From: Escherichia coli
GTDB lineage: Bacteria > Pseudomonadota > Gammaproteobacteria > Enterobacterales > Enterobacteriaceae
Strand: one strand, 5' to 3'
Assembly (NCBI GenBank): GCA_902500125.1
Contig: GCA_902500125.1_4132.1
Length of the DNA stretch: 64,000 bases
The stretch's first letter is position 1. Each line of letters opens with the position of its first letter. A model generated the notes under the pieces. It worked only from the letters and a program-made list of their open reading frames with translations, was not told the origin of the DNA and did no database searches. Positions 3,090-34,202 of the stretch are shown piece by piece. A program made the position numbers and the translations under genes.

Positions 3090-3093
3090 TATT

Positions 3094-6129: not shown

Positions 6130-6513
6130 ATGGTTGGTAAATGGAATAAGAAAGATCCATCACATGATGTTGATATTTCTGGTCTAGACAATGCACATAA
6201 GCACAAGTATCTAGATTCACTAGGTCTTCTAAAACCAGACCAAAGTCTTGCACATGATCGTCCATCCCGTGAAAAAGCATTTAGCCTAGAATCACTAGGC
6301 CATGAGCTTAATCGTGTGTTTGAGGATCACCCAATCTATGTACGTGATATTATCGAGAAACTTAAAGTAACTCCTAAAGAGCACTTTAAAGCAACTGTAC
6401 ACTCTGCATTCCGTGCATTACATGAATCTCTAAAGAAAACTCACAATCTTCGTAAAATTCATGATGAAATCGTGAATGCAATCGAAAGTGAAAAACATAA
6501 GTTCAAGAAGTAA
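6130..6513 (+). CDS. hypothetical protein, paralog of N-terminus of 7880..9118
   Basis: Track ORF; KHKYLDSLGLL and KVTPKEHFK match KLRYVNSLGLL and QSVPKEELK in 7880..9118. Confidence 0.55.
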   Translation: MVGKWNKKDPSHDVDISGLDNAHKHKYLDSLGLLKPDQSLAHDRPSREKAFSLESLGHELNRVFEDHPIYVRDIIEKLKVTPKEHFKATVHSAFRALHESLKKTHNLRKIHDEIVNAIESEKHKFKK

Positions 6514-6520
6514 TAAAAAT

Positions 6521-6552
6521 GGTTGACTAAGGTCAGCCCTTTGTTGTATCAT
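6521..6552 (+). terminator. terminator hairpin fused to promoter-like element
   Basis: GGTTGAC-TAAG-GTCAGCC hairpin; TTGACT and TATCAT spaced about 18. Confidence 0.45.
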
Positions 6553-6581
6553 AACTTCTCAATATAACTGAGGTATCATAT

Positions 6582-6695
6582 ATGCAAGGTTTGAAATTTG
6601 TAGTTGCTGCCCTAATCGCTGCTGTTGTAGTGGGTACAGTATGTTATTCAATTGACACCTATATCAATACACCTAGTGTTGAACAAACCAAATAA
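6582..6695 (+). CDS. small hydrophobic peptide (37 aa)
   Basis: ATG after TGAGG RBS; MQGLKFVVAALIAAVVVGTV...; below track size cutoff. Confidence 0.3.
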   Translation: MQGLKFVVAALIAAVVVGTVCYSIDTYINTPSVEQTK

Positions 6696-6703
6696 GGGAT
6701 ATC

Positions 6704-6967
6704 ATGGCTGAAACATTATCACTATATGCGTTAGTACTGTTATTTGTCGGATTTCTTCCCGCACTCATTACAGCCATTCGTGTTGTTAAACATGAAGCTG
6801 CATTGATTGTATGTAGTATTGGGTCGAACATTCTATTGTATTTCTTTTTGACAAATACTATTGTACTGTTTGCTTTCTTTATCATGATTCTGTGGGTACT
6901 TGTAATTCTCGGATTCTTCATTTGGTCATTGGTTGATCCTAAGAAAAAATCAGGAGAAGTGAAATGA
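6704..6967 (+). CDS. membrane protein (87 aa)
   Basis: Track ORF; hydrophobic. Confidence 0.5.
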   Translation: MAETLSLYALVLLFVGFLPALITAIRVVKHEAALIVCSIGSNILLYFFLTNTIVLFAFFIMILWVLVILGFFIWSLVDPKKKSGEVK

Positions 6968-7260
6968 AATTAATTATAGCAATGATAATGTGTTTGGCTT
7001 TCCCTGTACTGGCTACTCCTAATCTGGACTGCACACTGTTGCGTTCAGATGGTGACACACTTGAAATCAACACATATGAACTCTTTGGTCCAAGTGTAGT
7101 GGAGAATGAAACCACCTACAATTTCAAAGCTATTGACTTTGAAGGTAATGTTCCAGTACTAACTACAATGACTATTGACAAAACTACTTTACTCGGACGA
7201 ATCACCACACAACGCGGAGAAAGTAAAACATTCACAGCGAAAGCTGACTGTAACTACTAA
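6964..7260 (+). CDS. secreted protein with signal peptide
   Basis: Track ORF; ATGA overlap with upstream; N-term MKLIIAMIMCLAFPVLA. Confidence 0.55.
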   Translation: MKLIIAMIMCLAFPVLATPNLDCTLLRSDGDTLEINTYELFGPSVVENETTYNFKAIDFEGNVPVLTTMTIDKTTLLGRITTQRGESKTFTAKADCNY

Positions 7261-7282
7261 TGGTATAGTACAGTGAAAATAG

Positions 7283-7312
7283 GGTTGACTTCGGTCAACC
7301 TTTATATATAAT
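7283..7312 (+). terminator. terminator hairpin (UUCG loop) fused to promoter
   Basis: GGTTGAC-TTCG-GTCAACC perfect stem, T-run, TATAAT downstream. Confidence 0.6.
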
Positions 7313-7325
7313 GGAAGAAATAAAC

Positions 7326-7883
7326 ATGGAACGTTGGAAATTAATTCCTGATTATGACTATTCAATTTCTGATCATGGAAGAGTAAGAAACGAACAAACT
7401 GGATATATAAGTTGTGGATTTAAAAATAAAGATGGGTATGTGAAGGTCGATTTGTATCGCAATTCTGTGAAAAATAGAAAGGCGATTCATCGACTAGTAG
7501 CTGAAGCATTTTTACCACCACCCACACAGAAACAGTTACAGTGGGCGAGTAGAACAAAGAAAAAAGTTGTTCACATAAACCATAAAGATTGTAATAGAAG
7601 TAACAATCACTATTTGAATTTGGAATGGAACACAGCATCTGAAAACGTACTATATTCTTATTCACATGGTAACGCAACAACTAATCGTGGTGCTGCTGTG
7701 TTGACATGGGAAATTGTAAGAGAAATAAGAAAAGATTATAATGATAATTATAATGATGTGATAGAATATGCACGAGAAAATTGTAATAAATACCGTGTAT
7801 GTAAAAAAAACAATACGTCGTATTTTATACAATCAAACATGGATAGAGGATTAAAAATATGCCACAAGATAATGGGGATATGA
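7326..7883 (+). CDS. HNH homing endonuclease (NUMOD4-like N-terminus)
   Basis: ERWKLIPDYDYSISDHGRVRN and HINHKDCNRSNNHYLNLEWNTASEN motifs; start could be 7311. Confidence 0.8.
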   Translation: MERWKLIPDYDYSISDHGRVRNEQTGYISCGFKNKDGYVKVDLYRNSVKNRKAIHRLVAEAFLPPPTQKQLQWASRTKKKVVHINHKDCNRSNNHYLNLEWNTASENVLYSYSHGNATTNRGAAVLTWEIVREIRKDYNDNYNDVIEYARENCNKYRVCKKNNTSYFIQSNMDRGLKICHKIMGI

Positions 7884-9118
7884 AACATCGTAATGGTGGA
7901 CTAGTACAACACTCGGATAAATGGGCCGACCGAAATCGTCGCAAAAATAGTTATCAAGCAGGACAAGGTTCACGTGGTTCCAGAAACCAAGGAACGGGAC
8001 TTGCTGGTAAGGCAAACGCAGAAGCAGGTGAAGTTAAGAGTACTGAGAACATGACTGAGCTAGAAAAGCTACGTTATGTTAATTCATTGGGACTTCTTAA
8101 TGCTACACAAAAACAACGTCTAGCTGATATGGAACGTGAAGAAAAAGAAAAGTCTGCTCCTGCGAAAGAAGAACCAAAACAAGAAGCACCAAAGGCGGTT
8201 AACCCTGTCAAAGAACTGTCTGATAAGTTAGGTAAGATTTTTGCTAATAAACCACAACTTATCCAAGGTATTGTGAAAGAATTGCAATCTGTACCTAAAG
8301 AAGAATTAAAAGTCAAAGCACAAGCTGTACTTGATGCAATGAGTGGAAATACCAGTACTGAACCAACTGAAGTATTCAGTACTATAATGCGTGCACTTGA
8401 AGGTACGCAACAAGGTGATGTGCCTGCACAAGAGGAAGTAAGTCTTGAAAGCGTACTTAAAACATTTGATAGTATTGGTAAAGAAGACCGTGCTAATGCT
8501 CAACAAGTTAAGAATGTACTAGCTAAGTTAGAAAACCGTCTGGAAGGTAAAGACGATAAGATTAAATTAGTATCTGATGCAGTTAACGATGCACTTAAAT
8601 CTTATGTACAAGGTGAAAAGAGTCGTTTTGTAACTGCAATGGATGCTGCATTCAATACTATGAAAAAGTATGAAGCTGATCATGGTGAGAAGGTTACACG
8701 AGATGGTTATCTGATGCGTGATGATGAAGAAGGTGCAGTAGAACAGAATGATGTTCATTCAGACGAAGAAATTGATGACATGGAAGCTGAACTGTCACAA
8801 GACCGCCAAATGACTGAAAAATCCCATAACGAACTACAGAAATTAATGCAATGGGTTGCAGATGTTGGTGAAAAAGCTGGTGCTGATAAGAAGAGTATAA
8901 ACCGAAATCTTAGTTGGATTAAAGATAAAGTTGGTAACAACGCTCGTAAACTACAAAAAGCGTGGACTGATGTAGTGAATGGTGCTGTTGACATTGATGT
9001 TGAATCCGGTGAGGCATATGATTATGCATTGACTACACTTGATGACTCTTTCCGTGATTACGAAAATGGAAATGTAACTCCTTGGGAAAAGGATATCATG
9101 AGCAAATACGGTAAATGA
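7880..9118 (+). CDS. acidic, coiled-coil-rich hypothetical protein
   Basis: Track ORF 7859..9118; ATGA overlap with HNH stop chosen as start; N-terminal region paralogous to 6130..6513. Confidence 0.6.
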   Translation: MKHRNGGLVQHSDKWADRNRRKNSYQAGQGSRGSRNQGTGLAGKANAEAGEVKSTENMTELEKLRYVNSLGLLNATQKQRLADMEREEKEKSAPAKEEPKQEAPKAVNPVKELSDKLGKIFANKPQLIQGIVKELQSVPKEELKVKAQAVLDAMSGNTSTEPTEVFSTIMRALEGTQQGDVPAQEEVSLESVLKTFDSIGKEDRANAQQVKNVLAKLENRLEGKDDKIKLVSDAVNDALKSYVQGEKSRFVTAMDAAFNTMKKYEADHGEKVTRDGYLMRDDEEGAVEQNDVHSDEEIDDMEAELSQDRQMTEKSHNELQKLMQWVADVGEKAGADKKSINRNLSWIKDKVGNNARKLQKAWTDVVNGAVDIDVESGEAYDYALTTLDDSFRDYENGNVTPWEKDIMSKYGK

Positions 9119-9127
9119 TAAAACAAA

Positions 9128-9160
9128 AGGTTGACTTCGGTCAGCCTTTTTTGTTATGAT
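9128..9160 (+). terminator. terminator hairpin (UUCG loop) fused to promoter
   Basis: GGTTGAC-TTCG-GTCAGCC plus TTTTTT; TTGACT as -35. Confidence 0.6.
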
Positions 9161-9188
9161 GTTGGTATTAACTACAGAGGATAAAGTA

Positions 9189-9830
9189 ATGACTAAGCAA
9201 GACATATTCAAAACTTTAATTGACATTTTGCGTCCATCAAAAACTCGTTGTGCGATGGAGTTTGATATTCCTTATGCTGAACGCGTAATCTTTCCACAAG
9301 TTAAAGCTGCTGGACTTACTTTGCTTGGAATGGGGATGTACTCTGTAGTAGTTGAACATAAAAACTATCCTGGACGTGCATTTAAAGTAACCACTTCACG
9401 CTGGGATGGTTTTCGTGCTTATGCAAAGTACTGCATTGAAAACGCAGGAACCAAGTTTCTTCCAGTGATCTACAGTGCCAACGAACAAGGAAACTTTGGA
9501 TGGTATGAGATGGACAAGTACTATCCTATAATTAAACAAAAAAATAATTATGATGACTTTGTTAGTACTAAAATTGGAGATTTATATTCTTATGCACATG
9601 CTGGTCAGTACGCTACTTCAGTGAATGATATGCGTGGAAATTCTGAAGAGATTGCTATTGCAACGGTCGCTGCTAACATCATGAAAGAGTTTCACGGGCG
9701 TTTTGTACCAGACATTCATTCAAGTAATGTGATGATGGATAAAGATGGCAATGTATTCATTACTGATCCTCTTTCGTGTGATGTACGTAGAGAAATACCA
9801 GTTACTGAAGAAGATCCAGTTTTTTATTGA
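9189..9830 (+). CDS. protein-kinase-like protein
   Basis: GMGMYSVV..AFKV Gly-loop/Lys and DIHSSNVMMDKDGNVFITD catalytic-loop-like motifs; GAGGA RBS. Confidence 0.5.
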   Translation: MTKQDIFKTLIDILRPSKTRCAMEFDIPYAERVIFPQVKAAGLTLLGMGMYSVVVEHKNYPGRAFKVTTSRWDGFRAYAKYCIENAGTKFLPVIYSANEQGNFGWYEMDKYYPIIKQKNNYDDFVSTKIGDLYSYAHAGQYATSVNDMRGNSEEIAIATVAANIMKEFHGRFVPDIHSSNVMMDKDGNVFITDPLSCDVRREIPVTEEDPVFY

Positions 9831-9891
9831 CAGAACTGATGTTCTGGTGTATTCTTAATAAACCATAAAAATTGCGGTAAAGGATAAAATC

Positions 9892-10173
9892 ATGCGTTCA
9901 TTTGAAAACTTAATAGGTAAGCATCTTTTATCTGAAATTGATGCAGACGTTAAAGAATTATCCAAATCAAAAAGTTACATTCATTTGGATGAACTGTTTA
10001 TTAAGTACGGTGAGATTGGTTTTAAGTCATTATTTGTTTTTACTATGAAAGTACATAGTTTAAAGTACTTCGATTTGAGTTCTAAAGATGGTGAACCGAA
10101 TCTATATTACATGTATTACCTTAAGAACAAAGATGAAGCTAATACATTACTCTCTGAATATATATTGGGGTAA
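9892..10173 (+). CDS. hypothetical protein (93 aa)
   Basis: Track ORF; AAGGA RBS. Confidence 0.5.
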   Translation: MRSFENLIGKHLLSEIDADVKELSKSKSYIHLDELFIKYGEIGFKSLFVFTMKVHSLKYFDLSSKDGEPNLYYMYYLKNKDEANTLLSEYILG

Positions 10174-10175
10174 AA

Positions 10176-10514
10176 ATGGAACAATATTTTGAATTAATAA
10201 ACAAAGTATCATTTTATGTAGTATCTTTGGTTTGGGTGTATTATATGTTTTGCTATATTATTGCATTCTTCCGATATACTACTTTATATGAACGTATCTA
10301 CTATGATGCCCCAATTTCATTCTTGATGTTTTGTGCATGTACGTGGGGAATATTAGAAGTACTGATATGTGGGTATAGTACTGATGAATTAAATCTGGTA
10401 TCGGTGTTGACTGGGTTTTCATTTGTTGTTATGATAGCTGCCGTTCCAGTATGGTTGTTCTTTGGACTAGTTCATCGCATTGATATATGGCGTTCTAATA
10501 TCCCTGAAAAGTAA
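10176..10514 (+). CDS. membrane protein, paralog family (C-terminal RxN[ILM]PE)
   Basis: Track ORF; hydrophobic helices; ends WRSNIPEK. Confidence 0.55.
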   Translation: MEQYFELINKVSFYVVSLVWVYYMFCYIIAFFRYTTLYERIYYDAPISFLMFCACTWGILEVLICGYSTDELNLVSVLTGFSFVVMIAAVPVWLFFGLVHRIDIWRSNIPEK

Positions 10515-10517
10515 GGA

Positions 10518-10865
10518 TTGGAAATGATTTATTACACTAACATGTTTGCCTATGCTGTTGCTTGCATTTACATTGTTTACTTCTTATTCGGTGGAGTACT
10601 GTGCTTCTTTAAGTACAAAACGTTGTTCAACCGAATGTACCCAAATCATCCAATTGTAGTTGTACTTTTGATTCTTTCAGTTTCTCAAATAATCGTTGAA
10701 ACTACAATGGGTATCAGTAGTGTACATTATAGTTTTGGCACTATAGTAATTATTACTATGCTTATTGCATACATTTTAGTACTTGGATATGGTATCTTTG
10801 GTAATATTGGTATGAAAATGTATCATCGAATTAAAACATTACGTGATAATCTACCGGAGCGTTGA
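10518..10865 (+). CDS. membrane protein, paralog family
   Basis: Track ORF; ends LRDNLPER. Confidence 0.55.
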   Translation: MEMIYYTNMFAYAVACIYIVYFLFGGVLCFFKYKTLFNRMYPNHPIVVVLLILSVSQIIVETTMGISSVHYSFGTIVIITMLIAYILVLGYGIFGNIGMKMYHRIKTLRDNLPER

Positions 10866-10866
10866 T

Positions 10867-11211
10867 ATGTATAATTTGAACCTAATCTCATATATTATAA
10901 CAACACTGTTTACATTCTATGCCTTTGTTGGTATAATCCTACTGTACTTTAAATTTTATAAAGTGTTTAACCGTTTCTATCCTTCAATGGAGAATGAGTT
11001 TTTCTTTGTGTTGTACGTAGGTTACACATTAATGGCTACATGTTTCACTGTAGCCGATGGTGTCATCGGCATTAAAACTGATTCCCCAAATGGTAGTACG
11101 CTGGTTGCATTTATTCTTACTGGATTCCTTGCAACTTATATTGCCTTCATTACAACATGGTCAGTGGTTGAATTTCTCTTGCGACTACGAAAGAATATGC
11201 CGAATCGATAG
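10867..11211 (+). CDS. membrane protein, paralog family
   Basis: Internal ATG of track ORF 10843..11211 after GGAG; ends LRKNMPNR. Confidence 0.55.
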   Translation: MYNLNLISYIITTLFTFYAFVGIILLYFKFYKVFNRFYPSMENEFFFVLYVGYTLMATCFTVADGVIGIKTDSPNGSTLVAFILTGFLATYIAFITTWSVVEFLLRLRKNMPNR

Positions 11212-11220
11212 GAGACATAT

Positions 11221-11475
11221 ATGTTTGCGTTGCGTAATAAAAACACTAAAGAATTATTATGTATTGATACCGTATGGGATTGTGCGGGATCAACTACAGT
11301 TCTTGAAGAAGGAACTGGATATTGCGTGTTTGTTGTTCATGATAGGAATGAACTCGAATTATTACTTGCTGAGTTCAATGCTGGTGGTAATCCTAACAGT
11401 ACTGAATACCCTGAGATTATCAATCCAGCACCACCAGGCTCTTATGAAATTCTACAACTGTGGGAGTTGAAGTAA
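11221..11475 (+). CDS. hypothetical protein (84 aa)
   Basis: Track ORF; GGAG RBS. Confidence 0.5.
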   Translation: MFALRNKNTKELLCIDTVWDCAGSTTVLEEGTGYCVFVVHDRNELELLLAEFNAGGNPNSTEYPEIINPAPPGSYEILQLWELK

Positions 11476-11855
11476 TGCGTCAAATGCACAAAGTAACCGA
11501 GCTAAACAAGCGTCTGGTTAAACAATCAATGTTCGAGGATAAAGAGTCTTATTATAACTTTAAACGTGCTGTAGAGGCTGCTATCCACATTCAGAAGCTT
11601 AAAGAACGTGGTTGTATTATTCTGGAAAATGGGTCGGAAGTTGTAACGGATGACTTTAGTGTAGCGTTTGATGTTTCACCTGACGGGACGCTATCAATGC
11701 CCCGCTTAGGAACTGGAAACATGACTGTTTGGGTTGGCTTCACTATGGGGAATGTACCTGGTACTGTGTACGTAGATGATGCGGAATTGAAAGACAGTTT
11801 CAAAAACTTATCTTATCTTGAACCACAATACGCACATGAAATGAATTTATTTTGA
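11475..11855 (+). CDS. hypothetical protein
   Basis: TAATG overlap start inside track ORF 11460..11855. Confidence 0.5.
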   Translation: MRQMHKVTELNKRLVKQSMFEDKESYYNFKRAVEAAIHIQKLKERGCIILENGSEVVTDDFSVAFDVSPDGTLSMPRLGTGNMTVWVGFTMGNVPGTVYVDDAELKDSFKNLSYLEPQYAHEMNLF

Positions 11856-11931
11856 GTTGACAAACACATTCAGTACTGTATAATGCTTATCAAGGGGATG
11901 AACTTCTCATCCCTACAATCGAGGAACTACC

Positions 11932-12486
11932 ATGATTACTTTTAAGAAAACTGCTAACCACATCCATGAAATCTACATTAACGGTCACAAAGCTGGCCTT
12001 CTTCGTTTACTCGCCCATCATCCTGATGTTACCGTATCTGATAATGAACCTAAAGATTGGCGTGTATTTTTCTTTGGAAAGTACAGTGATTTTCAAGTAT
12101 CAAACCTGAAGAACATTCGTTCAGTATGCACGTTAACTGAAATTAAAGAAAAGTTAGAAAAAGCATTGAAAACTAATCCAGATGGTGTTCTTCCACCTGA
12201 TAACTTTGTAGAGAAAGGTTATGCATTAGCTCATTTCAAAGATGGTACTATTCAATCTATCAGTACTGAATATGAATATCAATGGACTGAGTACTTCACT
12301 TATGGATCGCGTAATACATTGATGGCTTCACGTAGTAAATTGGAAGAAGTACTGACTCGTATGAATGAACGCGAACGTCAATTTTATGACAAACCAGAAA
12401 TGTGGAGTTCAACTTACATTGACCGTATTGACTATGTTATTATGACTCCAATCTTTGACACTGCTTACTATGATTCTTTGAAATAA
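11932..12486 (+). CDS. hypothetical protein (184 aa)
   Basis: Track ORF; GAGGA RBS. Confidence 0.6.
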   Translation: MITFKKTANHIHEIYINGHKAGLLRLLAHHPDVTVSDNEPKDWRVFFFGKYSDFQVSNLKNIRSVCTLTEIKEKLEKALKTNPDGVLPPDNFVEKGYALAHFKDGTIQSISTEYEYQWTEYFTYGSRNTLMASRSKLEEVLTRMNERERQFYDKPEMWSSTYIDRIDYVIMTPIFDTAYYDSLK

Positions 12487-12497
12487 GGATAACTTAT

Positions 12498-12674
12498 ATG
12501 AAACTACGTACTCGTAATCGACTGATGGATGCACTGTACCATGAACAGCTTTCACTGAATGAAGTGAAGCGACAGTTAATGTACACATATCTGTTACCCG
12601 ATCGCATTGCAAAACAACGTGCTAAAGAATTGCTGAAAGAAGCAATCGAGTACTGGGAATCTGATTCGTACTAA
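12498..12674 (+). CDS. hypothetical protein (58 aa)
   Basis: ATG after AAGGA RBS; below track cutoff; coding-like composition. Confidence 0.4.
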   Translation: MKLRTRNRLMDALYHEQLSLNEVKRQLMYTYLLPDRIAKQRAKELLKEAIEYWESDSY

Positions 12675-12702
12675 TTGTCACGTTAATTAAGTGAGGCGAT
12701 AA

Positions 12703-12954
12703 ATGAAAATTTTATTAGTTCTAATACTACTAATTGTTTTACCATTTACGTTAGTATCCCCTGAACTTGCATGGAATGTGTTTGTGTACTTAGTATGTAC
12801 TATTGTAGTAAATGGTATCTTGTTCTTAGTTCTATTCATAAATGGAATAGGACACGGTGGAGGATGGACCAGTACTGCTGATATTGTACATAAAACCACT
12901 ATGTCTTTATTTGTAATGTGGAATTTATTCTGGACTTGGTTTGTGTTCTTCTAA
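12703..12954 (+). CDS. small membrane protein
   Basis: Track ORF; hydrophobic; GAGG RBS. Confidence 0.5.
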   Translation: MKILLVLILLIVLPFTLVSPELAWNVFVYLVCTIVVNGILFLVLFINGIGHGGGWTSTADIVHKTTMSLFVMWNLFWTWFVFF

Positions 12955-12962
12955 TTAAAAAT

Positions 12963-13334
12963 ATGAATATAGATTTGAAAGGTGCAACCCGAACTGTCAT
13001 ACTCATTGGGGAATATGCTATCAAGATTCCAACCTTTAAAAGTTGGAAGCTATTCTTAACAGGGATGATAGCTAACCTCAATGAACGTTCGTGGATGCAG
13101 TACTCCAATCGTAGTGATAGTAGTATCTGTCCTACGTTGTGGTCATCATGTACTGGACTAGTAACTGTACAGAAACGTTGTAAGCCAGTGCAACATAGGG
13201 GTTTATTTTGGGTGGAGTTGTGTGCTTTAGCATTGAATTCAGAGTTAAGTACTGACTTCTTCTATTCAGATGCGAAGCCAGAAAACTTTGGGTATCTGTG
13301 TGGTAAGTTGGTTAAACTTGATTATGGAGATTAA
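12963..13334 (+). CDS. mini protein-kinase-like protein
   Basis: GATRTVILIGEYAIK, DAKPENFG and KLDYGD in kinase motif order; internal ATG of track ORF. Confidence 0.45.
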   Translation: MNIDLKGATRTVILIGEYAIKIPTFKSWKLFLTGMIANLNERSWMQYSNRSDSSICPTLWSSCTGLVTVQKRCKPVQHRGLFWVELCALALNSELSTDFFYSDAKPENFGYLCGKLVKLDYGD

Positions 13335-13335
13335 T

Positions 13336-13605
13336 ATGTACGCATTGTATAATAAAGAAAAGAAACGATTTGCTAAGGTTGAAATTTCGATTGATACATT
13401 TGACATGTTGGAGTACTGTATTGTAACGGACTTATATGCTAACTTGTATTACGTTCTTGATGACGTATCAGTACTGCAACGATTGCTTGAGAATTCCAAA
13501 AGTCAATGCCAGGACATCCATGATGGTTCATCTTATGAAACACCTGAGTGTCCCCACGGGCAACTCGATGGGTATGAGATTGTTAAGTTGGGAATTGTTG
13601 AGTAA
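13336..13605 (+). CDS. hypothetical protein
   Basis: Internal ATG after GGAG within track ORF 13270..13605. Confidence 0.45.
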   Translation: MYALYNKEKKRFAKVEISIDTFDMLEYCIVTDLYANLYYVLDDVSVLQRLLENSKSQCQDIHDGSSYETPECPHGQLDGYEIVKLGIVE

Positions 13606-13670
13606 AAGGTATTGACACCGTACTCATTTAACTGTATTATGTATGTACACCAACTAATGAGGAATCGGAA

Positions 13671-14030
13671 ATGGCATCTTTATCTGAAATCACTGAACTG
13701 AATCCACTGGTAATTAGTACTGTTCAACGCACCAAGACGTTTTACTTCCGTCCTGCTGATGGATGGAAACGTGGAATGAATGGTGACTATCGAGTACTGG
13801 AAGATTCGCTCATCGAGCGTATCAACTCTGAACTACAGAAGTATGAAGGTGTTAAAGTTGTCCGTTCAACTTCTCGTTATTTTGAGTACTACATTGAGTC
13901 TTCAACTGTAAATGAAAACTCATCATTCTCGGTGGATAACACTGATATTCTTCGCAATGCAGTTGGTTTGCTATGCAACATTGCAGAAGAAATGGGATTA
14001 ACTATCACCACAATGAGTGAGTTAGAATAG
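13671..14030 (+). CDS. hypothetical protein (119 aa)
   Basis: Track ORF; GAGG RBS. Confidence 0.55.
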   Translation: MASLSEITELNPLVISTVQRTKTFYFRPADGWKRGMNGDYRVLEDSLIERINSELQKYEGVKVVRSTSRYFEYYIESSTVNENSSFSVDNTDILRNAVGLLCNIAEEMGLTITTMSELE

Positions 14031-14040
14031 AATAAAAAAA

Positions 14041-14073
14041 GGGTTGACTTAGGTCGGCCCTTTTGCTATTATA
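14041..14073 (+). terminator. terminator hairpin fused to promoter
   Basis: GGGTTGAC-TTAG-GTCGGCCC hairpin with wobble pairs, T-run, TTGACT/TATTAT. Confidence 0.55.
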
Positions 14074-14100
14074 TCTATATCGAAACGAAGGAGACAAACC

Positions 14101-14874
14101 ATGACCCGTCAAGAGAAAGCAATCCAAATCGAAAAAAACTTCAATAGCATGATGGCTGCACTGGAATGCCTTCTTGATACACAAGCTAACTCTATCAACT
14201 CTCTGATCGTATCAGGTAAAGGTGGTGTTGGTAAAACTTATAACGTTGACCAACGGTTGCAGAAAGCTGATGATAACTTTGAAATCGACTACAAGAAAAT
14301 CAGTGGTAAAGTAACTACTTTGGGTCTGTACGAAGCACTGTATCGTTCACGTCATGCCGCATCAGTACTGTTACTTGATGACGTTGATATCTTCTCTGAC
14401 GAGACTAATATTGATTTGCTTAAAGCTGTGTTGGATACGTCAGAGAAGCGTGTAGTTTCTTACGCGACTTCTGCTAAGTACCTGGAACAGCAGGGTATCC
14501 CTAAGCAGTTTGAATTCCGTGGTAAAGTAATCTTTCTGACTAACAAAAACCTGTCACAGATTGCTAAAGGTAAAAGCAGCTTAGCACCACACATCGATGC
14601 ACTGATCACTCGTAGTATCTTTGTTGACCTGCAACTGTTCACCAACGAAGAAGTGATGATTCACATTGAGAACATCATGAACAAAACTAACATCCTTGAA
14701 AACAATGGTGTTAACAAAAATGGTTGTAAAGCAATCCTGAATTGGATGCTGAACAACGAAGAACGTTTGCGTAGTCCATCACTGCGTATGCCAGTACTGA
14801 TCGCTGGTTTGTATAATAAATTCCCATACGATTGGGAATCAATGGCAGAGAATATGTTCCTTGAGAAAATTTAA
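14101..14874 (+). CDS. P-loop NTPase (Walker A GKGGVGKT, Walker B LLLDDVD)
   Basis: Track ORF; deviant Walker A resembling ParA/MinD-type; GGAG RBS. Confidence 0.65.
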   Translation: MTRQEKAIQIEKNFNSMMAALECLLDTQANSINSLIVSGKGGVGKTYNVDQRLQKADDNFEIDYKKISGKVTTLGLYEALYRSRHAASVLLLDDVDIFSDETNIDLLKAVLDTSEKRVVSYATSAKYLEQQGIPKQFEFRGKVIFLTNKNLSQIAKGKSSLAPHIDALITRSIFVDLQLFTNEEVMIHIENIMNKTNILENNGVNKNGCKAILNWMLNNEERLRSPSLRMPVLIAGLYNKFPYDWESMAENMFLEKI

Positions 14875-14941
14875 TTACATGTATTGACAGTACTACACTA
14901 TGGTAGTACTATAACTTAATATTCACCACCGGAGATACGAT

Positions 14942-15280
14942 ATGCTTGAGTTTTTTAATTCAGATACAATGATTAGTATTACTTTGATTTATCTGTTTGG
15001 TTTTTTCTTTTATCATGCACTGGTTGTAGTACTGTGGTATTTTAAAAAGAAAATTGTTTTTAAACTGTATCCAGTAAGGAATTCATCACTAGTTCTTTAC
15101 ACACTAGTTCAAGGTTTGTTTGCAATTGTTGGTCTTATGGCACACTTAATTTATTGTGCCAATCCTCACTTGAACTCAATCTCACAATATATTGTATTCT
15201 TTGGGTTGTTCATTTGGTTAGTTGTATACTTAATCCATCTCATTATTCATGGTAGAGATAAAATTCGCGGAGACTTCTAA
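14942..15280 (+). CDS. membrane protein, paralog family
   Basis: Track ORF; hydrophobic; GGAG RBS. Confidence 0.55.
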   Translation: MLEFFNSDTMISITLIYLFGFFFYHALVVVLWYFKKKIVFKLYPVRNSSLVLYTLVQGLFAIVGLMAHLIYCANPHLNSISQYIVFFGLFIWLVVYLIHLIIHGRDKIRGDF

Positions 15281-15627
15281 TGTTTGAAGCTTATCTTGAG
15301 TTTTTAAGGAGTAGTTCAGTTGCACATTCACTTGCAGGGATTATTCTAACAACTTATGTATCATTTTGGGTAGTTATGTTTCTAGGATGGTATTTTAAAC
15401 GACAATTCTATAAACGTAATGGTGAAGATTTTATGAATTCTGCCATTAATCAATCGTTGTTTGCATCAACATTGATTGCATGTATTGTAGCAACACTCAC
15501 AGGAAAGGTACTACCAGCTTTTTCCGCAGTTTACGGCACACTTGGGATGATATGTTTAACTTTTATATTGACCATTAAAATTTGTTGTGTTATGATTGAA
15601 CTTCGAAATAAGATACCGGAGGAATGA
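15280..15627 (+). CDS. membrane protein, paralog family
   Basis: Track ORF; ends LRNKIPEE; overlapping start. Confidence 0.55.
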   Translation: MFEAYLEFLRSSSVAHSLAGIILTTYVSFWVVMFLGWYFKRQFYKRNGEDFMNSAINQSLFASTLIACIVATLTGKVLPAFSAVYGTLGMICLTFILTIKICCVMIELRNKIPEE

Positions 15628-15962
15628 TGGAGTACTTTATTGATTTACTGCCGTGGTATATGAAAGTTAGTACCATGTACTATATTATTAGTGCTGGATT
15701 CTACTTTCTGATGTGGTTCTTTAAACGACCAATTTCAGTATTCATCGCTGATAACATGCTGCAATTAAAATTACACGCATGGTTTGGTATGGCGATGATT
15801 ATGCCTATTATTCACTACTCAATGATTAGTAGAGGTTTCCGTTCTAATGGTGAACCAATTGTATTAGTATTCTATTGGGGTTCAACTATTGCATATGTAA
15901 GTTTGTTGTTGTTCCCAGTCGTTCATAAGTTACGTGCTAAAGTTCCTGATGCGAGGTACTAA
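15624..15962 (+). CDS. membrane protein, paralog family
   Basis: Track ORF; ATGA overlap; ends LRAKVPDARY. Confidence 0.55.
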   Translation: MMEYFIDLLPWYMKVSTMYYIISAGFYFLMWFFKRPISVFIADNMLQLKLHAWFGMAMIMPIIHYSMISRGFRSNGEPIVLVFYWGSTIAYVSLLLFPVVHKLRAKVPDARY

Positions 15963-16276
15963 TGGATATAGTAACATTGATTTACACGTTGTATTCATTC
16001 TATTTCATTATGTGTTGGGTTGGATTTTTATTTGTACTCAAGATGTTTGATTATGTTGAAAAACAGATAAAAGAATTTTGTATTCCTTTTATCGGTTCAA
16101 CCATTATTAGTGTTTCTTGTGTGTATTTTTTGGTTTTTGATCCACCAGATAACACTGCAATGATTGACTTGATGTTACTACCAACAACTGTTACTTTTTT
16201 ATGTAGTCTGATGCCGCCGATTAGCCGTGGACTAACAGAATTTAGACGCAATCAAAAGCGTAAACGAGGGATGTAA
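15962..16276 (+). CDS. membrane protein, paralog family
   Basis: Track ORF; overlapping start. Confidence 0.55.
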   Translation: MDIVTLIYTLYSFYFIMCWVGFLFVLKMFDYVEKQIKEFCIPFIGSTIISVSCVYFLVFDPPDNTAMIDLMLLPTTVTFLCSLMPPISRGLTEFRRNQKRKRGM

Positions 16277-16644
16277 TGGAAATTGCTCTTATTATCTTAA
16301 CTGCTATGCTGTTTATTAGTACTGTGGTTATAATTGGTAAATTCTTTTGTGTATCATTTTTAGAAACGGTATACGATGAAATTGCTGATGATTATGAATT
16401 ACAAGCCGGATTTTTCATTACGTATTGGCTTAGTTTATTTTGTCTAGTCATTGCTTGGATTTTACATATCTTTAAATGGGGTATGGTAGACGGTGATCCT
16501 ATTATGGCAATTATTGTTCTAGTGTTTGGTATCCTTGGTGGTGCAGTGCATAATCTAATGGTTATCTGGCAAACTGTTCAATATGTTTTGGTTCCCTATT
16601 TCGAAAAGATGCACAGTACAATTAAAAAACGTAAACGAGGTTAG
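16276..16644 (+). CDS. membrane protein, paralog family
   Basis: Track ORF; overlapping start. Confidence 0.55.
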   Translation: MEIALIILTAMLFISTVVIIGKFFCVSFLETVYDEIADDYELQAGFFITYWLSLFCLVIAWILHIFKWGMVDGDPIMAIIVLVFGILGGAVHNLMVIWQTVQYVLVPYFEKMHSTIKKRKRG

Positions 16645-16645
16645 T

Positions 16646-17008
16646 ATGAACGGGATAGAATTATCTTTCGTTGGTCAATTACTAGTAATGGCGTATACAT
16701 TTATCTTCTCACTGAATGCATTCGTGTGCATTGGGAAGTACTTCCATAAGCGACCATTATCAAATATATATGATGTAATCCAAAAGAGATATAGTCCAGC
16801 ATATACTGTGTTGGGTACAGTATTCAATTTTGGTTTTATTGTATTAATAATTGGACTGTTCACATCCTCTTTGAATACAATAACCTTCGGTCTTATGATA
16901 TGTTCATTGGTATTAGCCGTAATTATATGTTGTTTAGTACTGCACCTTGTGGTACTATTGTATATAAAGATCTCTGAAATCCACCAACGTTTGGGTATGA
17001 GGAAATAA
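16646..17008 (+). CDS. membrane protein, paralog family
   Basis: Internal ATG of track ORF 16583..17008 after upstream stop. Confidence 0.5.
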   Translation: MNGIELSFVGQLLVMAYTFIFSLNAFVCIGKYFHKRPLSNIYDVIQKRYSPAYTVLGTVFNFGFIVLIIGLFTSSLNTITFGLMICSLVLAVIICCLVLHLVVLLYIKISEIHQRLGMRK

Positions 17009-17009
17009 T

Positions 17010-17381
17010 ATGAGTTACCGTGAGATATTTTCCATTATTTCAATTATTATGTTCAGTACTGGAACACTGGTATGGTTATTATACTTCTTCTGTATTAATC
17101 CAGTGTATAATATGTTATGTAATATTAAATCAAGTGCCGGATATATCACTTTTATGGTCTTTATGGGATATTATTGTCTAAGCATTTTAGGTGTTGTTTT
17201 GGTTGTTATATTTGATGTGGGACCAAATAGTGATGGTATGGAAATACATGAATTAATAACCATGTTTGGATGTATGATACCAACAGCACTACTGTTTGTA
17301 GCTACTGGTAGTGGATTGATAAAATTATATAATTATTTAAAATCCATTCATAATTCCATTCATAATAAGCGTATGTCATAA
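17010..17381 (+). CDS. membrane protein, paralog family
   Basis: Track ORF. Confidence 0.55.
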   Translation: MSYREIFSIISIIMFSTGTLVWLLYFFCINPVYNMLCNIKSSAGYITFMVFMGYYCLSILGVVLVVIFDVGPNSDGMEIHELITMFGCMIPTALLFVATGSGLIKLYNYLKSIHNSIHNKRMS

Positions 17382-17388
17382 TAAAAAA

Positions 17389-17410
17389 TCCAGTACTATT
17401 AAGTACTGGA
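17389..17410. other. AGTACT-containing hairpin
   Basis: TCCAGTACT-ATTA-AGTACTGGA inverted repeat between genes. Confidence 0.4.
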
Positions 17411-17423
17411 TGTATAAGGAGTT

Positions 17424-18086
17424 ATGATGAAATCAAAATTAGGTTTGTTTTATAAAAACTATTTTGTTAAACAACGTAAATTTATAAAAAAATATTTCTC
17501 TGGCGAGAAGTCTAGTCCTATAATCTTTAAAAGACCAAGTTATAATACTTACTTAGCTGGTGCTAAACAGTCTAAGAAATTTATTACTCTTTTACATAAA
17601 AACAAAATTAAAGCTTCTTATGTTGAAACGAGAAGAAACTCATCAATAACTCCTGGTGATTTTATTGAGTACGGATGTTTCAATATTAAGTACAATGATA
17701 ATACATACTTTATGGATATTGATTGTAATACATCCAATCTTTTTAACATTGTAGTAAATCCATTAAAACAATATAATGTTTATGGTGATTCTATTATCAA
17801 ATTAATCAAAAACAAAGATAGCTTTGATTTTGAAATAAATGTTTTAGATGATAATTTTGACGAAGTACCAGTAAACCCTGAAATCTGTGATATTTTAAAC
17901 AGTTTAAAAGGTAGTACCTACACTATATCATCTGATTTAATGTTTCAGTACTCATTAATCCATAAAGATATTGAAAAGTATATTGAATGCTCCAAAATTT
18001 TGAATTATCTTTACGATGAATTTAAAAAGAGTTCTAAAATAACCGCATACACTTTGTACAATATTCCTAAAATGGTGAATCTTTGA
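17424..18086 (+). CDS. hypothetical protein (220 aa)
   Basis: Track ORF; GGAG RBS. Confidence 0.55.
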   Translation: MMKSKLGLFYKNYFVKQRKFIKKYFSGEKSSPIIFKRPSYNTYLAGAKQSKKFITLLHKNKIKASYVETRRNSSITPGDFIEYGCFNIKYNDNTYFMDIDCNTSNLFNIVVNPLKQYNVYGDSIIKLIKNKDSFDFEINVLDDNFDEVPVNPEICDILNSLKGSTYTISSDLMFQYSLIHKDIEKYIECSKILNYLYDEFKKSSKITAYTLYNIPKMVNL

Positions 18087-18490
18087 CAAATACAGTACTG
18101 GCAACTCCACCGTCTGTAACATATTGTCCAGTACTGTAAATTTGTATACCATCGGTTAAGTAAGTTCTGTATAAAGTTGCTGTAACATATACGTTATTCA
18201 TATTCATCTCTATTGGTAGTACACATTTGGTATAGGCTGAGACATCTGTTTGTGTACCTATACCTAATTGACCTGCGTTATCGCCTGTGTTATAACCAGT
18301 TGCGTAAACACCTAATGAAGTTATAATATGATTAGAAAAATATGAATAACCCAAACTCTTGAGATTCTCTACTGTACAACGTACCATCTGACATAAGGGC
18401 AAAAACTGTTGTATCAGATGAAGCTATTTTTGTTACAGAAGGTTGTATGTTCTGTTTTGATGATGTGATAATTCTTCGAAAGGGTAGCAT
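18067..18490 (-). pseudogene. truncated, frameshifted remnant of MLPF-tag family
   Basis: ATG at 18490 after GGAGGA encodes MLPFRRIITS.. then stops; family C-terminus (LGIGTQTDVS..TVFVKDSPF) continues in another frame. Confidence 0.5.
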
Positions 18491-18536
18491 TGTATCCTCC
18501 AAATGTAAATCGTTATTATATTTAGGACAAAAAAAT

Positions 18537-18555
18537 GCCAGTACAAAATACTGGC
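18537..18555 (-). terminator. terminator hairpin
   Basis: GCCAGTA-N-TACTGGC stem with T-run on minus strand. Confidence 0.55.
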
Positions 18556-18561
18556 TTTATT

Positions 18562-32114: not shown

Positions 32115-32127
32115 TTAAACACATAGA

Positions 32128-32218
32128 GACAGGGGAAGCTCCTAGTGAACAACCTTTATGTACAGGCGAATTGTTAAAATTCAGCCTGGACAAATGCGAT
32201 CACTAGGATTCTCCCCAG
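32128..32218. repeat. imperfect long inverted repeat
   Basis: GGGGAAGCTCCTAGTG ... CACTAGGATTCTCCCC arms enclosing about 60 nt. Confidence 0.35.
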
Positions 32219-32762
32219 GCTAAACCCCGTAATCATAGGTAGTCATAAGTAATCATATATAAACATTTATATGAGCACCGTAGAATCACAGAATGATTAT
32301 ATATGATTCAGTACTGATTAGTATAGACAAGATTGCTCAAGAATGCACGGAAATGTGTGTGAATGATTATATATGATTCAGTACTGATATGCCACTAAGT
32401 AGGCAGAGGAAGTCTGCCGTACTTTGTAGTTTCCAAGCTCCTTTTCCATTTTGCAAATTACATCAAATGTAATCAAAAGTAATCACACAATGATTAGTAC
32501 TGAATTATTACTTTCACCTTAATTACAATTACCCTTTTACCCTTCGGGGTAAAATTCCATTACCCCTTGAGGCTCCAGCAAAAAGTTGGTTAGTACTCCA
32601 TCCTAAATCTCGATCCTAAAAATTTTGGAGTACCTATGAAATAAAAGTTGGATCTTCGAAAGTTGAAATTTACGTTGGGACGTTTATGATTTGTGGGATA
32701 TAATGATGTTTGTAGTCGGGTAGTTCTCAAGAATATCAGTACTGAATAATGAAAGAAAGCTA

Positions 32763-32790
32763 TTGACATTATGATTCAGTACTGTATAAT
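32763..32790 (+). promoter_or_regulatory. sigma70-like promoter in non-coding island
   Basis: TTGACA-N16-TATAAT with no ORF downstream. Confidence 0.45.
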
Positions 32791-32796
32791 GTTCTA

Positions 32797-32912
32797 CATA
32801 GAGAGATGAGTTGCCGCAAACAATTCATTCACTCTACCTCCTGTCGTGAGACAGTACTGAAAGGATAGTTCCTCCTATGGGTGGTACATCTTTTTATAAC
32901 CTCTTTTTTCGT
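32797..32912 (+). ncRNA. candidate small RNA
   Basis: Promoter upstream, no ATG-initiated ORF, GNRA-loop hairpin CTGTC-GTGA-GACAG, T-run at 3' end. Confidence 0.25.
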
Positions 32913-33180
32913 AATATAAACAGTACTGATATTAACAGAATGGTGTCAGTACTGATTTTAATCTAAAGCATTATGCCACCAGCTTGTGCTGGTGGATTCC
33001 CTCTAACAGTATTCAGTACTACATGATGGTCTTCATCCTCCTAGGGTAACATAGTGAGGGCTATGATGGCAGTACTGAATACTCCCTTTCAAAAGATAGA
33101 TCTATGGTATAGTACTGACGGATTTTGGGTGTAGTTACCCTGGGTGGATTTTGGACGTAGATATGTCTAGCCCTCCAGAA

Positions 33181-33332
33181 GTCTGGAAGTAAAGATGGCT
33201 ATCCATCTAGACGGCTAAACGGCTAGATTTCTGGATGGCTGGATGGCTAGATTTCTGGATGGCTGGATGGCTAGACGTTTGGACGGCTAAACGGCTAGAT
33301 GGTTACACGTCTGGAAGTATAGACGGCTAAAT
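33181..33332. repeat. iteron-like short direct repeats
   Basis: GGATGGCT/GACGGCTA units; 24-bp ATTTCTGGATGGCTGGATGGCTAG duplicated in tandem; flanked by GTCTGGAAGTA. Confidence 0.55.
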
Positions 33333-33949
33333 CAAAATTTTATTTTGTTTTTTCCAATAGTTCCCCTACCGCGTGGGGATAGTTTCCCCGCAGTATCTGG
33401 AGTTAGATTTTTCTGAATCTGGAATCATTATCTTATAAACTGGGGGCAATGTCAACGGCCTGGACGGATATTTTTAAAAATTTTTTCAGTACTGAATTTT
33501 GGGCGTAACTATGCACCCGGTGGGCTTGAGTCTTTCTCGACTTGATGGAACTATTATACAGTACTGAAAAAATAAAGCAATACCCTGGAAGCAAAAAAAT
33601 TTTAATTAATTTGCTTGCTATCCTGGGCCGGACTATGGTACTATATTTCAGTACTGAGAAAGTGCGTTTGCCTGCTAGGGTGCGGGAGTGTATCCTTTTT
33701 TTATATCTTGAATTTTGGGCGTAATTCCGCACCCCCTGGGGTTTCCGCTTTCTCGCGTCTATGTAGTAATTATACGCTTTTTCAGGATCAAGTCAATACC
33801 TAAAAACAAAATAATTGAAAATAATTTAACGCGTTTAAACGGCCCGTAAAGCCCTGGAATGATTAGAATGGTGCAAATGTATAGCTTAGGTGTATTAATG
33901 CGTTAGAATGCGTCTGAGGCCGTTTTACGGGGTATAGGGATGATTTAGT

Positions 33950-34110
33950 GGATTGATTCAGTACTGAATAATAGTACTCCTATATAGAAAGATAGTTCCC
34001 CTGGATTGATTCAGTACTGAATAATAGTACTCCTATATAGAAAGATAGTTCCCCTGGATGGTTGCAGTACTGAATGATAGTACTGAATAATAGTTCCCCT
34101 ATATAGAAAG
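33950..34110. repeat. 53-bp direct repeat, two copies plus partial third
   Basis: GGATTGATTCAGTACTGAATAATAGTACTCCTATATAGAAAGATAGTTCCCCT repeated in tandem. Confidence 0.6.
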
Positions 34111-34142
34111 AAAACTATTTTAAAAGTATTTGTAGAAAGTAC

Positions 34143-34202
34143 TTGCAAACTAAGTTTAACGGCGTATAATGTTTTACATCGAGAGCGGGAACACTTCCCG
34201 CT
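34143..34202 (+). promoter_or_regulatory. promoter plus leader hairpin unit
   Basis: TTGCAA-N16-TATAAT then AGCGGGA-loop-TCCCGCT hairpin. Confidence 0.55.

Follow-up and report, generated by a model that had tools for sequence, protein, structure and literature searches.

The window analysed here, a stretch of 64,000 nucleotides on contig GCA_902500125.1_4132.1 (GenBank assembly GCA_902500125.1), derives from a Rak2-like jumbo coliphage, a member of the PBECO4/121Q/phAPEC6 group in the genus Asteriusvirus. A first-pass annotation, made from the letters alone, singled out an island at 32115–34168 that is free of open reading frames (ORFs) and rich in repeats, and proposed a replication origin, a packaging site or a genome-end repeat. 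What is such an island for? It is probably the untranslated boundary region of a direct terminal repeat (DTR) of ~20.7 kb, a multi-purpose cis-acting end region whose functions are inferred. The island is packed with end-related repeats, Chi sites and small predicted non-coding transcription units, and it is not a plain replication origin. The repeats, the promoter and the AGTACT sites listed in the first-pass annotation are all present where it placed them.

The paper on phage CBB describes a direct terminal repeat of 22.5 kb, which prompted a search for the chromosome end in Asteriusvirus records longer than ~366 kb. Seven records that contain both DTR copies start or end at window base 32398: G17 (in reverse orientation), vB_Ec-M-J, BF17, fEgEco12, ELP-22, CRJP21, and E9.1. 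They share the terminal sequence AGTAGGCAGAGGAAGTCTGCC..., which begins at that base. In G17, bases 1–20668 equal bases 350150–370817, and the vB_Ec-M-J record annotates 'Direct Terminal Repeats 1..21525'. The repeat ends on the right at 53090 (...GCGGGTAACCT|TAGCGAC), in a gap of 249 bp that holds no gene. This base is the same in G17 and fEgEco12, and the annotated end of vB_Ec-M-J is 1 nt off, within a T run. The gap (52939–53187) also holds the inverted repeats AAAAGTCAAGG and CCTTGACTTTT, which are 93% complementary over 15 nt, and the GC content drops from 0.43 to 0.33 just past 53090.

At least three measurements of the end are independent. The terminal redundancy of G17, about 20 kb, was deduced from read coverage. 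For fEgEco12, PhageTerm located the termini, and restriction digests confirmed them (PMC13070987). The DTR of Sharanji, also determined by PhageTerm, is 20,668 bp, equal to the repeat length of G17. These relatives place the physical left end of the packaged chromosome between 32397 and 32398, inside the island, and the genome-end option of the first-pass annotation is thereby borne out. Judging from relatives that are ~90–96% identical, the present phage would share the same ends. With the end at 32398, the island therefore consists of the last 283 bp of unique DNA and the first ~1.8 kb of the DTR. The remainder of the repeat contains many small rightward genes, a number of which have their own sigma-70 promoter and leader hairpin. 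An exact scan of IMG/VR with the terminal 21-mer returned the 121Q genome alone.

The layout of the island reaches beyond the genus. Collinear blocks, running inward from the left end, are common to phages fENko-Kae01 (Klebsiella), CBB (Pectobacterium), and BF (Serratia), which represent three other Rak2-like genera. According to the average nucleotide identities in the fEgEco12 paper, these phages are only about 23–30% similar genome-wide (PMC13070987). The retention of non-coding DNA across genera argues for function. The blocks and the other features of the island are listed in Table 1.

Table 1. Features of the chromosome-end region in window coordinates, with distances counted from the cut at 32397/32398
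Feature	Position	Strand	Description	Match in other genera
Last unique DNA	32115–32397	.	283 bp abutting the DTR; holds long inverted repeat, hypervariable stretch and conserved ~20 bp	
Hexamer cluster, unique side	32229–32265	+	GTAATCA/GTAGTCA in 10-bp phase, −169 to −133; Tandem Repeats Finder (TRF) period 10, 2.9 copies	
Whole DTR	32398–53090	+	20,693 bp; boundaries from relatives	
Terminal hairpin	32398–32423	+	First DTR bases, AGTAGGCAGA-GGAAG-TCTGCCgTACT; 10-bp bulged stem possible	
Hexamer cluster, DTR side	32462–32497	+	10-bp-phased AATCAA/GTAATCA and inverted AATGATT; +64 to +99	
Conserved block	32584–32636	+	AGTACTCCATCCTAAATC...AAATTTTGGAGTACC; 8-bp inverted repeat GTACTCCA / TGGAGTAC	
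Orphan sigma-70 promoter	32763–32790	+	TTGACA-N16-TATAAT, 12/12; CAGTACTG abuts −10 hexamer	
Predicted non-coding RNA	32796–32965	+	~165 nt, four hairpins	
Inverted Chi pair hairpin	32976–32995	.	CCACCAGC-TTGT-GCTGGTGG; minus-strand copy faces left end, 578 bp away	fENko-Kae01
GGATTTTGGGTGTA block	33121–33142			fENko-Kae01 by blastn; CBB, BF by eye
8-bp array	33152–33335	+	23 head-to-tail units TGGATGGC / TAGACGGC / TAAACGGC ...; +755 to +938 from end	CBB, BF
Leftward-promoter block	33349–33455			fENko-Kae01
Leftward sigma-70 promoter	33455–33427	−	TTGACA-N17-GATAAT, 11/12; conserved in Asteriusvirus	
Element copy 1	33493–33552 (unit 33493–33590)	−	GAGAAA-loop hairpin, then CCCACCGGGTGC; upstream TATAAT with weak −35; covariance model 50.7 bits	
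Element copy 2	33644–33703	+	Terminator-like hairpin and T7 run at 33677–33702; converges on copy 3; covariance model 39.5 bits	
Element copy 3	33709–33768 (unit 33709–33796)	−	Promoter TTGACT-N16-TATAAT at 33796–33769, 11/12; covariance model 52.4 bits	
52-nt block	33725–33776			fENko-Kae01, 92%
Motif AATGCGTTAGAATGCGTCTGAGGCCGTTTTA	33897–33927	+	Shared with T5 Repeat Region 3	
53-bp tandem repeat	33949–34120	+	Two exact copies and a degenerate third; each with CAGTACTG and AGTACT	
First-gene promoter block	34104–34160			fENko-Kae01, CBB and BF
First DTR gene control region	34143–34225	+	Promoter TTGCAA-N16-TATAAT, 5′ leader hairpin, ribosome-binding region	

The DNA on the two sides of the cut differs in its conservation. 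The ~20 bp directly to the left (CAGTACTGATATGCCACTA) are conserved among relatives, and the ~100 bp left of the cut are rich in insertions and deletions; the DNA to the right is nearly invariant. The duplicated segments noted in the first pass are two identical copies (100%) of the 28-mer GAATGATTATATATGATTCAGTACTGAT. The copies, at 32291–32318 and 32361–32388, belong to a strain-specific 70-bp tandem duplication in the hypervariable stretch. The long inverted repeat farther left was also recovered, with arms of 22 nt (32127–32148 and 32200–32221) that are 77% complementary.

Two hexamer clusters flank the cut. TAATCA is 18-fold and GTAATCA about 38-fold denser in 32150–32520 than in the window on average, and the cluster on the unique side is conserved in six relatives. 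The clusters are candidate terminase-binding sites. In the proposed course of end formation, terminase would cut the replicative concatemer at 32397/32398, and could be directed there by three features: the terminal hairpin, the TAATCA clusters on either side, and the invariant ~20 bp that precede the cut. Farther inward, the AAATTTTGGAGTACC block (32592–32634) is 93% identical over 43 nt to positions 86–128 of fENko-Kae01, and its core also occurs 113–134 nt from the left end in CBB and Serratia BF.

Sites of the E. coli Chi octamer (GCTGGTGG) are concentrated in the repeat. The window, of 36% GC, contains 16 Chi sites against 0.63 expected, with 12 in the 20.7-kb DTR versus 4 in 43 kb of unique DNA (p = 6e-4). 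G17 similarly has 10 in its DTR and none in 18.7 kb of flanking unique DNA. fENko-Kae01 carries the same inverted pair at the position corresponding to 32976. For RecBCD to recognise Chi, it must approach from the 3′ side of GCTGGTGG. Because of this polarity, plus-strand sites face the right end of the chromosome and the minus-strand site at 32976 faces the left end. Ten of the 12 DTR sites are on the plus strand, the nearest being 1,361 bp from the right end. The pair 578 bp from the left end, together with the 10 further DTR sites (9 of which face the right end), should make RecBCD stop degrading DNA and load RecA instead. This would limit degradation of incoming ends and favour RecA-mediated recombination between the DTR copies. 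The clustering suggests that the phage relies on host RecBCD rather than blocking it. Two gene-free patches elsewhere in the DTR, 39430–39650 and 43575–43645, each set a Chi site next to the 11-mer GTTAGAATGCG discussed below, and the first contains an inverted Chi pair (39491 minus, 39553 plus).

Promoter-like sites are not in excess in the region (9 found versus 9.3 expected by chance), so that only individual conserved sites, not their overall count, are meaningful. The orphan promoter of the first-pass annotation, which matches the consensus at 12 of 12 positions, is such a site. Its hexamers and the abutting CAGTACTG are kept in all 12 aligned relatives, including the divergent JNE01 and EJP2, except for the sixth base of the −35 hexamer in three of them. 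The 170-nt stretch downstream folds with a minimum free energy of −48.3 kcal/mol (z = −4.2). Its sequence varies among relatives while the hairpins are kept, the support coming from few divergent sequences. The stem of hairpin H1 exists in three versions (ATGAGTTG/CAATTCAT, GGGAAC/GTTCCT, and GAAATC/GATTTT), and two-sided changes in JNE01 and EJP2 convert a C-G pair to A-U in H2 and an A-U pair to U-A in H4. H4 (32921–32954) consists of two CAGTACTG palindromes. With U-rich runs behind it on both strands, it resembles a terminator that acts in both directions. Given the promoter, the compensatory changes and this terminator-like hairpin, a conserved structured non-coding RNA (ncRNA) is predicted downstream of the orphan promoter. 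The small RNA suggested in the first pass thus stands in kind and not in length, which is predicted to be ~165 nt rather than ~115 nt.

The leftward promoter at 33427–33455 would transcribe the 8-bp array toward the chromosome end, and by eye the same promoter is present in fENko-Kae01. Early in infection, host RNA polymerase would start at the conserved sigma-70 promoters and produce small structured ncRNAs in both directions. These ncRNAs would be the one of ~165 nt and the three island copies of a DTR-specific element, a hairpin plus CCCAnnGGGUGC; the first early gene comes next.

The palindromes AGTACT and CAGTACTG, both frequent in the island, are genome-wide motifs and not a mark of the island. 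The window contains 278 AGTACT sites (21 expected) and 65 copies of CAGTACTG (0.8 expected), within and between genes. By single-base expectation, no hexamer in the window is more over-represented than AGTACT and the two that overlap it, GTACTG and CAGTAC. The first-pass count of more than 20 AGTACT sites holds, with 22 in 32115–34168. The density in the island is 2.5-fold (AGTACT) and about 7-fold (CAGTACTG) that of the window average. In sigma-70-type promoters, CAGTACTG frequently adjoins the −10 hexamer, and in many cases AGTACT overlaps the −35 (AAAAGTACTTGACA). The pattern suggests a putative genome-wide binding site for a dimeric protein. CAGTACTG is absent after 52809, with 0 copies in 53091–64000, an abrupt stop at the right DTR boundary. 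A literature search on AGTACT over-representation in jumbo phages returned nothing relevant. Both palindromes are present in each unit of the 53-bp direct repeat, which TRF reports, in agreement with the first pass, at 33949–34084 (2.6 copies, 95% matches). Its copy number varies among strains, giving a gap fraction of ~0.6 in the alignment of relatives.

A short promoter-proximal element occurs eleven times in the window, at 33493, 33644, 33709, 35651, 35716, 37638, 42494, 43890, 45877, 48889, and 51637, and all copies are inside the DTR. Each unit consists of a sigma-70-type promoter, a 3–5-bp hairpin with a purine-rich loop (GAGAAA, GAAACA, or AGAUAA) and, four bases on, an invariant CCCAnnGGGTGC. 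Twelve different stem sequences are found at the same position, with a mean stem of 3.48 bp versus 2.66 ± 0.15 in shuffled sequences. All four pairs of the helix change on both sides, and the covariation is 0.267 versus 0.135 ± 0.021, with none of 500 shuffles as high. RNAalifold, run on a MAFFT alignment of the units, found only the invariant mini-hairpin; the upstream hairpin was identified by a named-structure count and a custom scan. A covariance model of the element was trained on the same eleven copies that it recovers, the three island copies included. Because of this training set, the informative result is the absence of the element elsewhere: the model found no match in the 43 kb of unique DNA, in T5, in the Vibrio loci or in the T7-like loci. 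The element has no match in Rfam.

Copy 3 is 92% identical over 52 nt to fENko-Kae01. CBB, fENko-Kae01 and BF each carry a convergent pair of elements about 1.0–1.1 kb from the left end. A long-range pairing between a 5′ ACAU and a 3′ AUGU was considered and dropped, since its 5′ partner is mostly upstream of the likely start site. A second hairpin, GGGATTGACTCCGGTCAGTCCC followed by TTTGCTATTAT, is located at 42462–42483, 45850–45871, 48857–48878, and 51610–51631. It is terminator-like for the upstream gene, and its left arm is the −35 (TTGACT) of the next promoter, forming a fused terminator-promoter module.

TRF reports the 8-bp array at 33206–33300 (period 24, 4.0 copies) and at 33231–33272 (period 8, 5.2 copies), in accord with the tandem 24-mer of the first pass. 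The consensus is T-R-G/A-A-Y-G-G/T-C, with a 24-bp super-period. Two GGATTTTGGG motifs (33120 and 33146) precede the array, and an A/T-rich tract (33336–33352) follows it; a single match to the IHF consensus is at 33330. The array differs in length among strains, mostly by multiples of 8 bp, a 206-bp query matching spans of 166, 174, 182, and 190 bp. A sensitive BLAST search found related arrays in 89 records, very often less than 1 kb from the record end. Outside Asteriusvirus they occur in other Rak2-like genera, in T5-like phages of Vibrio, Aeromonas, and Providencia, and in the T7-like phages phiKT, PGT2, and KPV811. Arrays near record ends are found in CBB, Serratia BF, Erwinia pEa phages, Yersinia fHe-Yen9, the T5-like Thalassavirus phages of Vibrio, PGT2, and KPV811. 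In PGT2, for which a 260-bp DTR was determined here, the array is at 44–108, inside the DTR.

The array is thus common to three unrelated virion types with an exact DTR and therefore points to an end-related role, such as packaging, end holding or ejection. At its place, fENko-Kae01 carries a different, Fur-box-like repeat, GAGAATnnTTCTC. This replacement suggests a protein-binding array with an exchangeable partner. The array may accordingly be bound by a protein that acts on the end itself, in packaging or ejection. The GGA-rich units also raised the thought of a CsrA sponge, which was set aside because no plus-strand promoter feeds the array. PGT2 disfavours the sponge as well: its array, 44–108 nt from the left end, is upstream of any visible promoter.

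Several points weigh against this picture of the island as a chromosome-end region. The end of the present phage is known only through relatives that are ~90–96% identical in the island. Some records were perhaps oriented by copying earlier ones, leaving fewer than seven independent measurements. Everything beyond the repeat boundary is inferred, including what the hexamers, the RNA elements and the array do. Folded as single-stranded DNA, the 121-nt junction 32340–32460 is no more stable than shuffled sequences (z = −1.4). The left and right cut sites, when compared, show no convincing common motif, and no terminase recognition motif is defined because of this lack of similarity. CBB, BF and pEa carry a different hairpin where the Chi pair sits, and the excess of plus-strand Chi sites is partly expected from a G-rich coding strand.

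A more specific proposal takes phage T5 as its model. [quoted passage not shown] Most of the region belongs to the left terminal repeat (bioRxiv 10.1101/866236). It overruns into unique DNA by 270 bp, is conserved better than nearby ORFs, and is a probable injection-stop signal (Davison, bioRxiv 10.1101/866236). By analogy, the DTR would be delivered first and its early genes expressed, and the island would arrest or anchor the DNA, which phage proteins would later release. The island, for its part, is ~2.1 kb long, overruns by 283 bp and matches its flanking genes in conservation, and the DTR is full of small genes, many with sigma-70 promoters. The two regions also share a motif. Positions 33897–33927 are 87.5% identical over 32 nt to T5 9267–9297 (E = 2e-4 in a small search), and the 11-mer GTTAGAATGCG is found in the island (33902) and in Repeat Region 3; it recurs at 39571 and 43631, each time beside a Chi site. 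In fENko-Kae01 and Serratia BF, the corresponding regions also contain the AATGAGAATCATTATCATT repeats of T5.

Nevertheless, an injection stop of the T5 type is unlikely to be what the island is. The paired DnaA boxes of T5 are absent, the shared motifs are short and not collinear with T5, and the geometry of T5 would need the right end to enter first. The ten largest DTR proteins gave no annotation as T5 A1, A2 or dmp; they matched only families of unknown function and a GNAT acetyltransferase, in searches that did not include a direct comparison with T5 A1/A2. The literature covered reports no staged DNA transfer for these myoviruses.

The Fur-box-like AATGAGAATCATTATCATT and its variants are located at 690–800 and 1030–1060 in fENko-Kae01, at 1028–1050 in Serratia BF, and at 9468–9640 in T5. 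In the island of Asteriusvirus, these places are taken by the 8-bp array or the GAATTTTGGG motif. The record of the T5-like Vibrio phage Quinn starts with an array of the 8-bp type (25–129 within 1–330), followed by exact DnaA boxes (TTATCCACA twice and TTATCCACC once) and a TACTGTATATTTATACAGT palindrome that matches palindrome D of T5.

A replication origin, as the first-pass annotation had suggested, is equally doubtful. The array would then be a set of iterons and the A/T tract an unwinding element, and the promoters without genes would prime replication through an R-loop, as at oriF and oriG of T4. In its favour, the tandem repeats adjoin an A/T-rich tract with the IHF-consensus match (33330), the region has promoters that converge or lack a gene, and the cumulative GC skew has its minimum near 32 kb within the window. 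However, the 8-bp period is neither helically phased nor of iteron length (about 17–22 bp), and the same array occurs close to the ends of T5-like phages and, 44–108 nt from the end, in the DTR of a T7-like phage. There is no enrichment of DnaA boxes, at 1.9 per kb (four one-mismatch sites) versus 3.2 per kb window-wide, and there is no exact TTWTNCACA in the island. No initiator gene adjoins it. The skew check proposed in the first pass does return the minimum, but the turn coincides with a change in gene strand and composition, from minus-strand genes at 18–27.8 kb to an oddly composed block at 27.9–32.1 kb. An origin is compatible with the end region as an extra function, and may possibly coexist with it.

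The block at 27920–32114 contains ~20 tiny plus-strand ORFs (59–84 amino acids, one of 219), with a GC skew of −0.16 to −0.22 and a strongly positive AT skew. Other plus-strand genes of the window lack that skew, and the block contributes to the local skew minimum besides the minus-strand genes.

The island appears, from its sequence, to contain no credible gene. In GenBank, 42 records of PBECO4/121Q-type phages match it at 88–96% identity; none is identical, and for 33 the match covers at least 80% of the island. The gene-free stretch runs on to 34225, the ATG of the first DTR gene being at 34226. The ORF-free description of the first pass was thus approximate, since six short ORFs of 31–99 amino acids exist, overlapping one another on both strands. 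Pfam and PHROG searches matched no family for any of the six, while the adjacent gene matches phrog_7352 with E = 1e-58. Frameshifts or stops interrupt the ORFs in PBECO4, EJP2 or 121Q; the flanking gene is intact in all good-quality relatives. The deposited annotations of PBECO4, 121Q, G17 and vB_Ec-M-J leave the island gene-free, and in G17 its equivalent is the largest intergenic gap within 60 kb. The tRNA and ncRNA scans that the first-pass annotation had suggested returned nothing in the whole window (Rfam at gathering score), hence no tRNA and no Rfam match in the island. Rfam at permissive E-values gave two chance-level hits in 32–38 kb (E = 2 and 4).

Decayed or mis-called coding DNA, in which small or frameshifted genes would make the repeats incidental, is therefore very improbable, even though ORFs of 59–99 amino acids are present, the 99-amino-acid ORF is open in 10 of 13 relatives, and several automatically annotated records place small 'hypothetical proteins' in the island. 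Conservation across genera sits in promoter, hairpin, and repeat blocks rather than in reading frames. Within the genus it reaches 0.93–0.99 over 33400–33950, versus 0.90–0.97 in the flanking gene, and an open frame in that stretch counts for little because the sequence there is so conserved. No ordinary gene was found in the island on allowing for frameshifts, and hidden genes are unlikely.

The ends of the genus are already in GenBank and in print, and the anatomy of the end region is what is added here. It comprises the hexamer clusters at the cut site, the Chi pair and the Chi-rich repeat, the conserved ncRNA, the repeat-specific structured element, the 8-bp array common to T5-like and T7-like phages, and the parallel with T5 Repeat Region 3. 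A word search of the genome papers of fEgEco12 and Sharanji found that 'non-coding', 'intergenic' and 'promoter' are never used. An unannotated 2-kb gap in every jumbo phage genome of the PBECO4/121Q type thus becomes a mapped chromosome-end region with testable parts. Assemblies are often deposited with an arbitrary start, and an exact end helps their orientation, annotation, and engineering; several of these phages have been proposed for therapy. If the shared motifs reflect a common mechanism, they would offer a handle on how exact-DTR phages recognise, cut, protect, and deliver their ends.

A broader, speculative picture can be drawn, though the chance that it holds as a whole is small. 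The array, GTTAGAATGCG and the Fur-box-like repeats, common to Rak2-like jumbo myoviruses, T5-like siphoviruses and a T7-like podovirus, might form an exchangeable 'chromosome-end kit', read by a host factor or at a step common to exact-DTR phages. The 20-kb DTR might be delivered or processed in stages as in T5, with the island as anchor or stop. The timing of the early genes might then depend on the eleven hairpin-plus-CCCAnnGGGUGC elements as regulatory RNAs of a new, promoter-proximal class, antitermination sites for instance.

Several known systems resemble parts of the region. In the pac site of phage P1, hexamer clusters flank the terminase cut and include Dam (GATC) sites, and headful packaging proceeds from pac. 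The island is similar in that each side of the cut has a cluster of three or four helically phased TAATCA/AATCAT hexamers. It differs in the hexamer, in the lack of GATC involvement, and in having exact ends rather than headful ones; binding by the small terminase is putative.

The nut site of phage lambda is composed of boxA and a boxB hairpin that is read by the antiterminator. Like boxB, the repeat-specific element is just downstream of promoters and has a covarying stem with a purine-rich 6-nt loop, in an early region dense in predicted terminators. Antitermination is considered for these reasons and is one possibility for its role. Unlike in nut, an invariant CCCAnnGGGUGC follows the hairpin, and no N-like protein was identified. 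By eye, no boxA-like sequence was seen in the element units, whose invariant CCCAnnGGGTGC is in that place. Four of the eleven copies point leftward, against the genes, and do not easily fit antitermination. The element may be a new regulatory device.

T7 reportedly carries terminal arrays of short repeats and the promoters A1–A3, in an account attributed to Dunn and Studier in 1983. The island resembles the left ends of T7-like phages, where short head-to-tail units near the end are followed by inward-facing sigma-70 promoters, and the units of the T7-like coliphage PGT2 are almost the same (TGGATGGC / TAGACGGC / TAAATGGC). Unlike in T7-like ends, the array is ~755–940 bp inside a 20.7-kb DTR, with about 1.8 kb of non-coding DNA before the first gene. 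Unlike T7, these jumbo phages lack promoters of the type used by the T7 phage RNA polymerase.

The likeness to T5 extends to the whole layout. Both phages have kilobase-scale untranslated repeats that straddle the boundary of a long DTR and overrun ~270–283 bp into unique DNA. In both, the region is conserved at least as well as neighbouring ORFs and lies next to small early genes read by host RNA polymerase, and the 32-nt motif containing GTTAGAATGCG is common to the two. In contrast, the paired DnaA boxes of T5 (IRD′-spacer-IRC′) are absent from the island, the 8-bp array and the CAGTACTG-bearing repeats take the place of DRD and DRC, and collinearity of the shared motifs is lacking. T5 also differs in being a siphovirus; its repeat measures 10 kb, and its two-step transfer is proven. 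The island thus looks like the T5 region and is not filed as a member of it.

The closest counterparts are the DTRs of Rak2-like and related jumbo phages, which measure 22.5 kb in CBB, 21.0 kb in fEgEco12, 20.7 kb in G17 and Sharanji, 19.7 kb in fENko-Kae01, and 39 kb in PA5oct. An analogous case is PA5oct, whose DTR is transcribed early and codes for two abundant ncRNAs (PMC7318152). The published accounts covered here otherwise give the length or termini of these repeats only, in which they differ from the present description. The island marks the same kind of chromosome end as in those jumbo phages, and within Asteriusvirus the boundary bases are identical.

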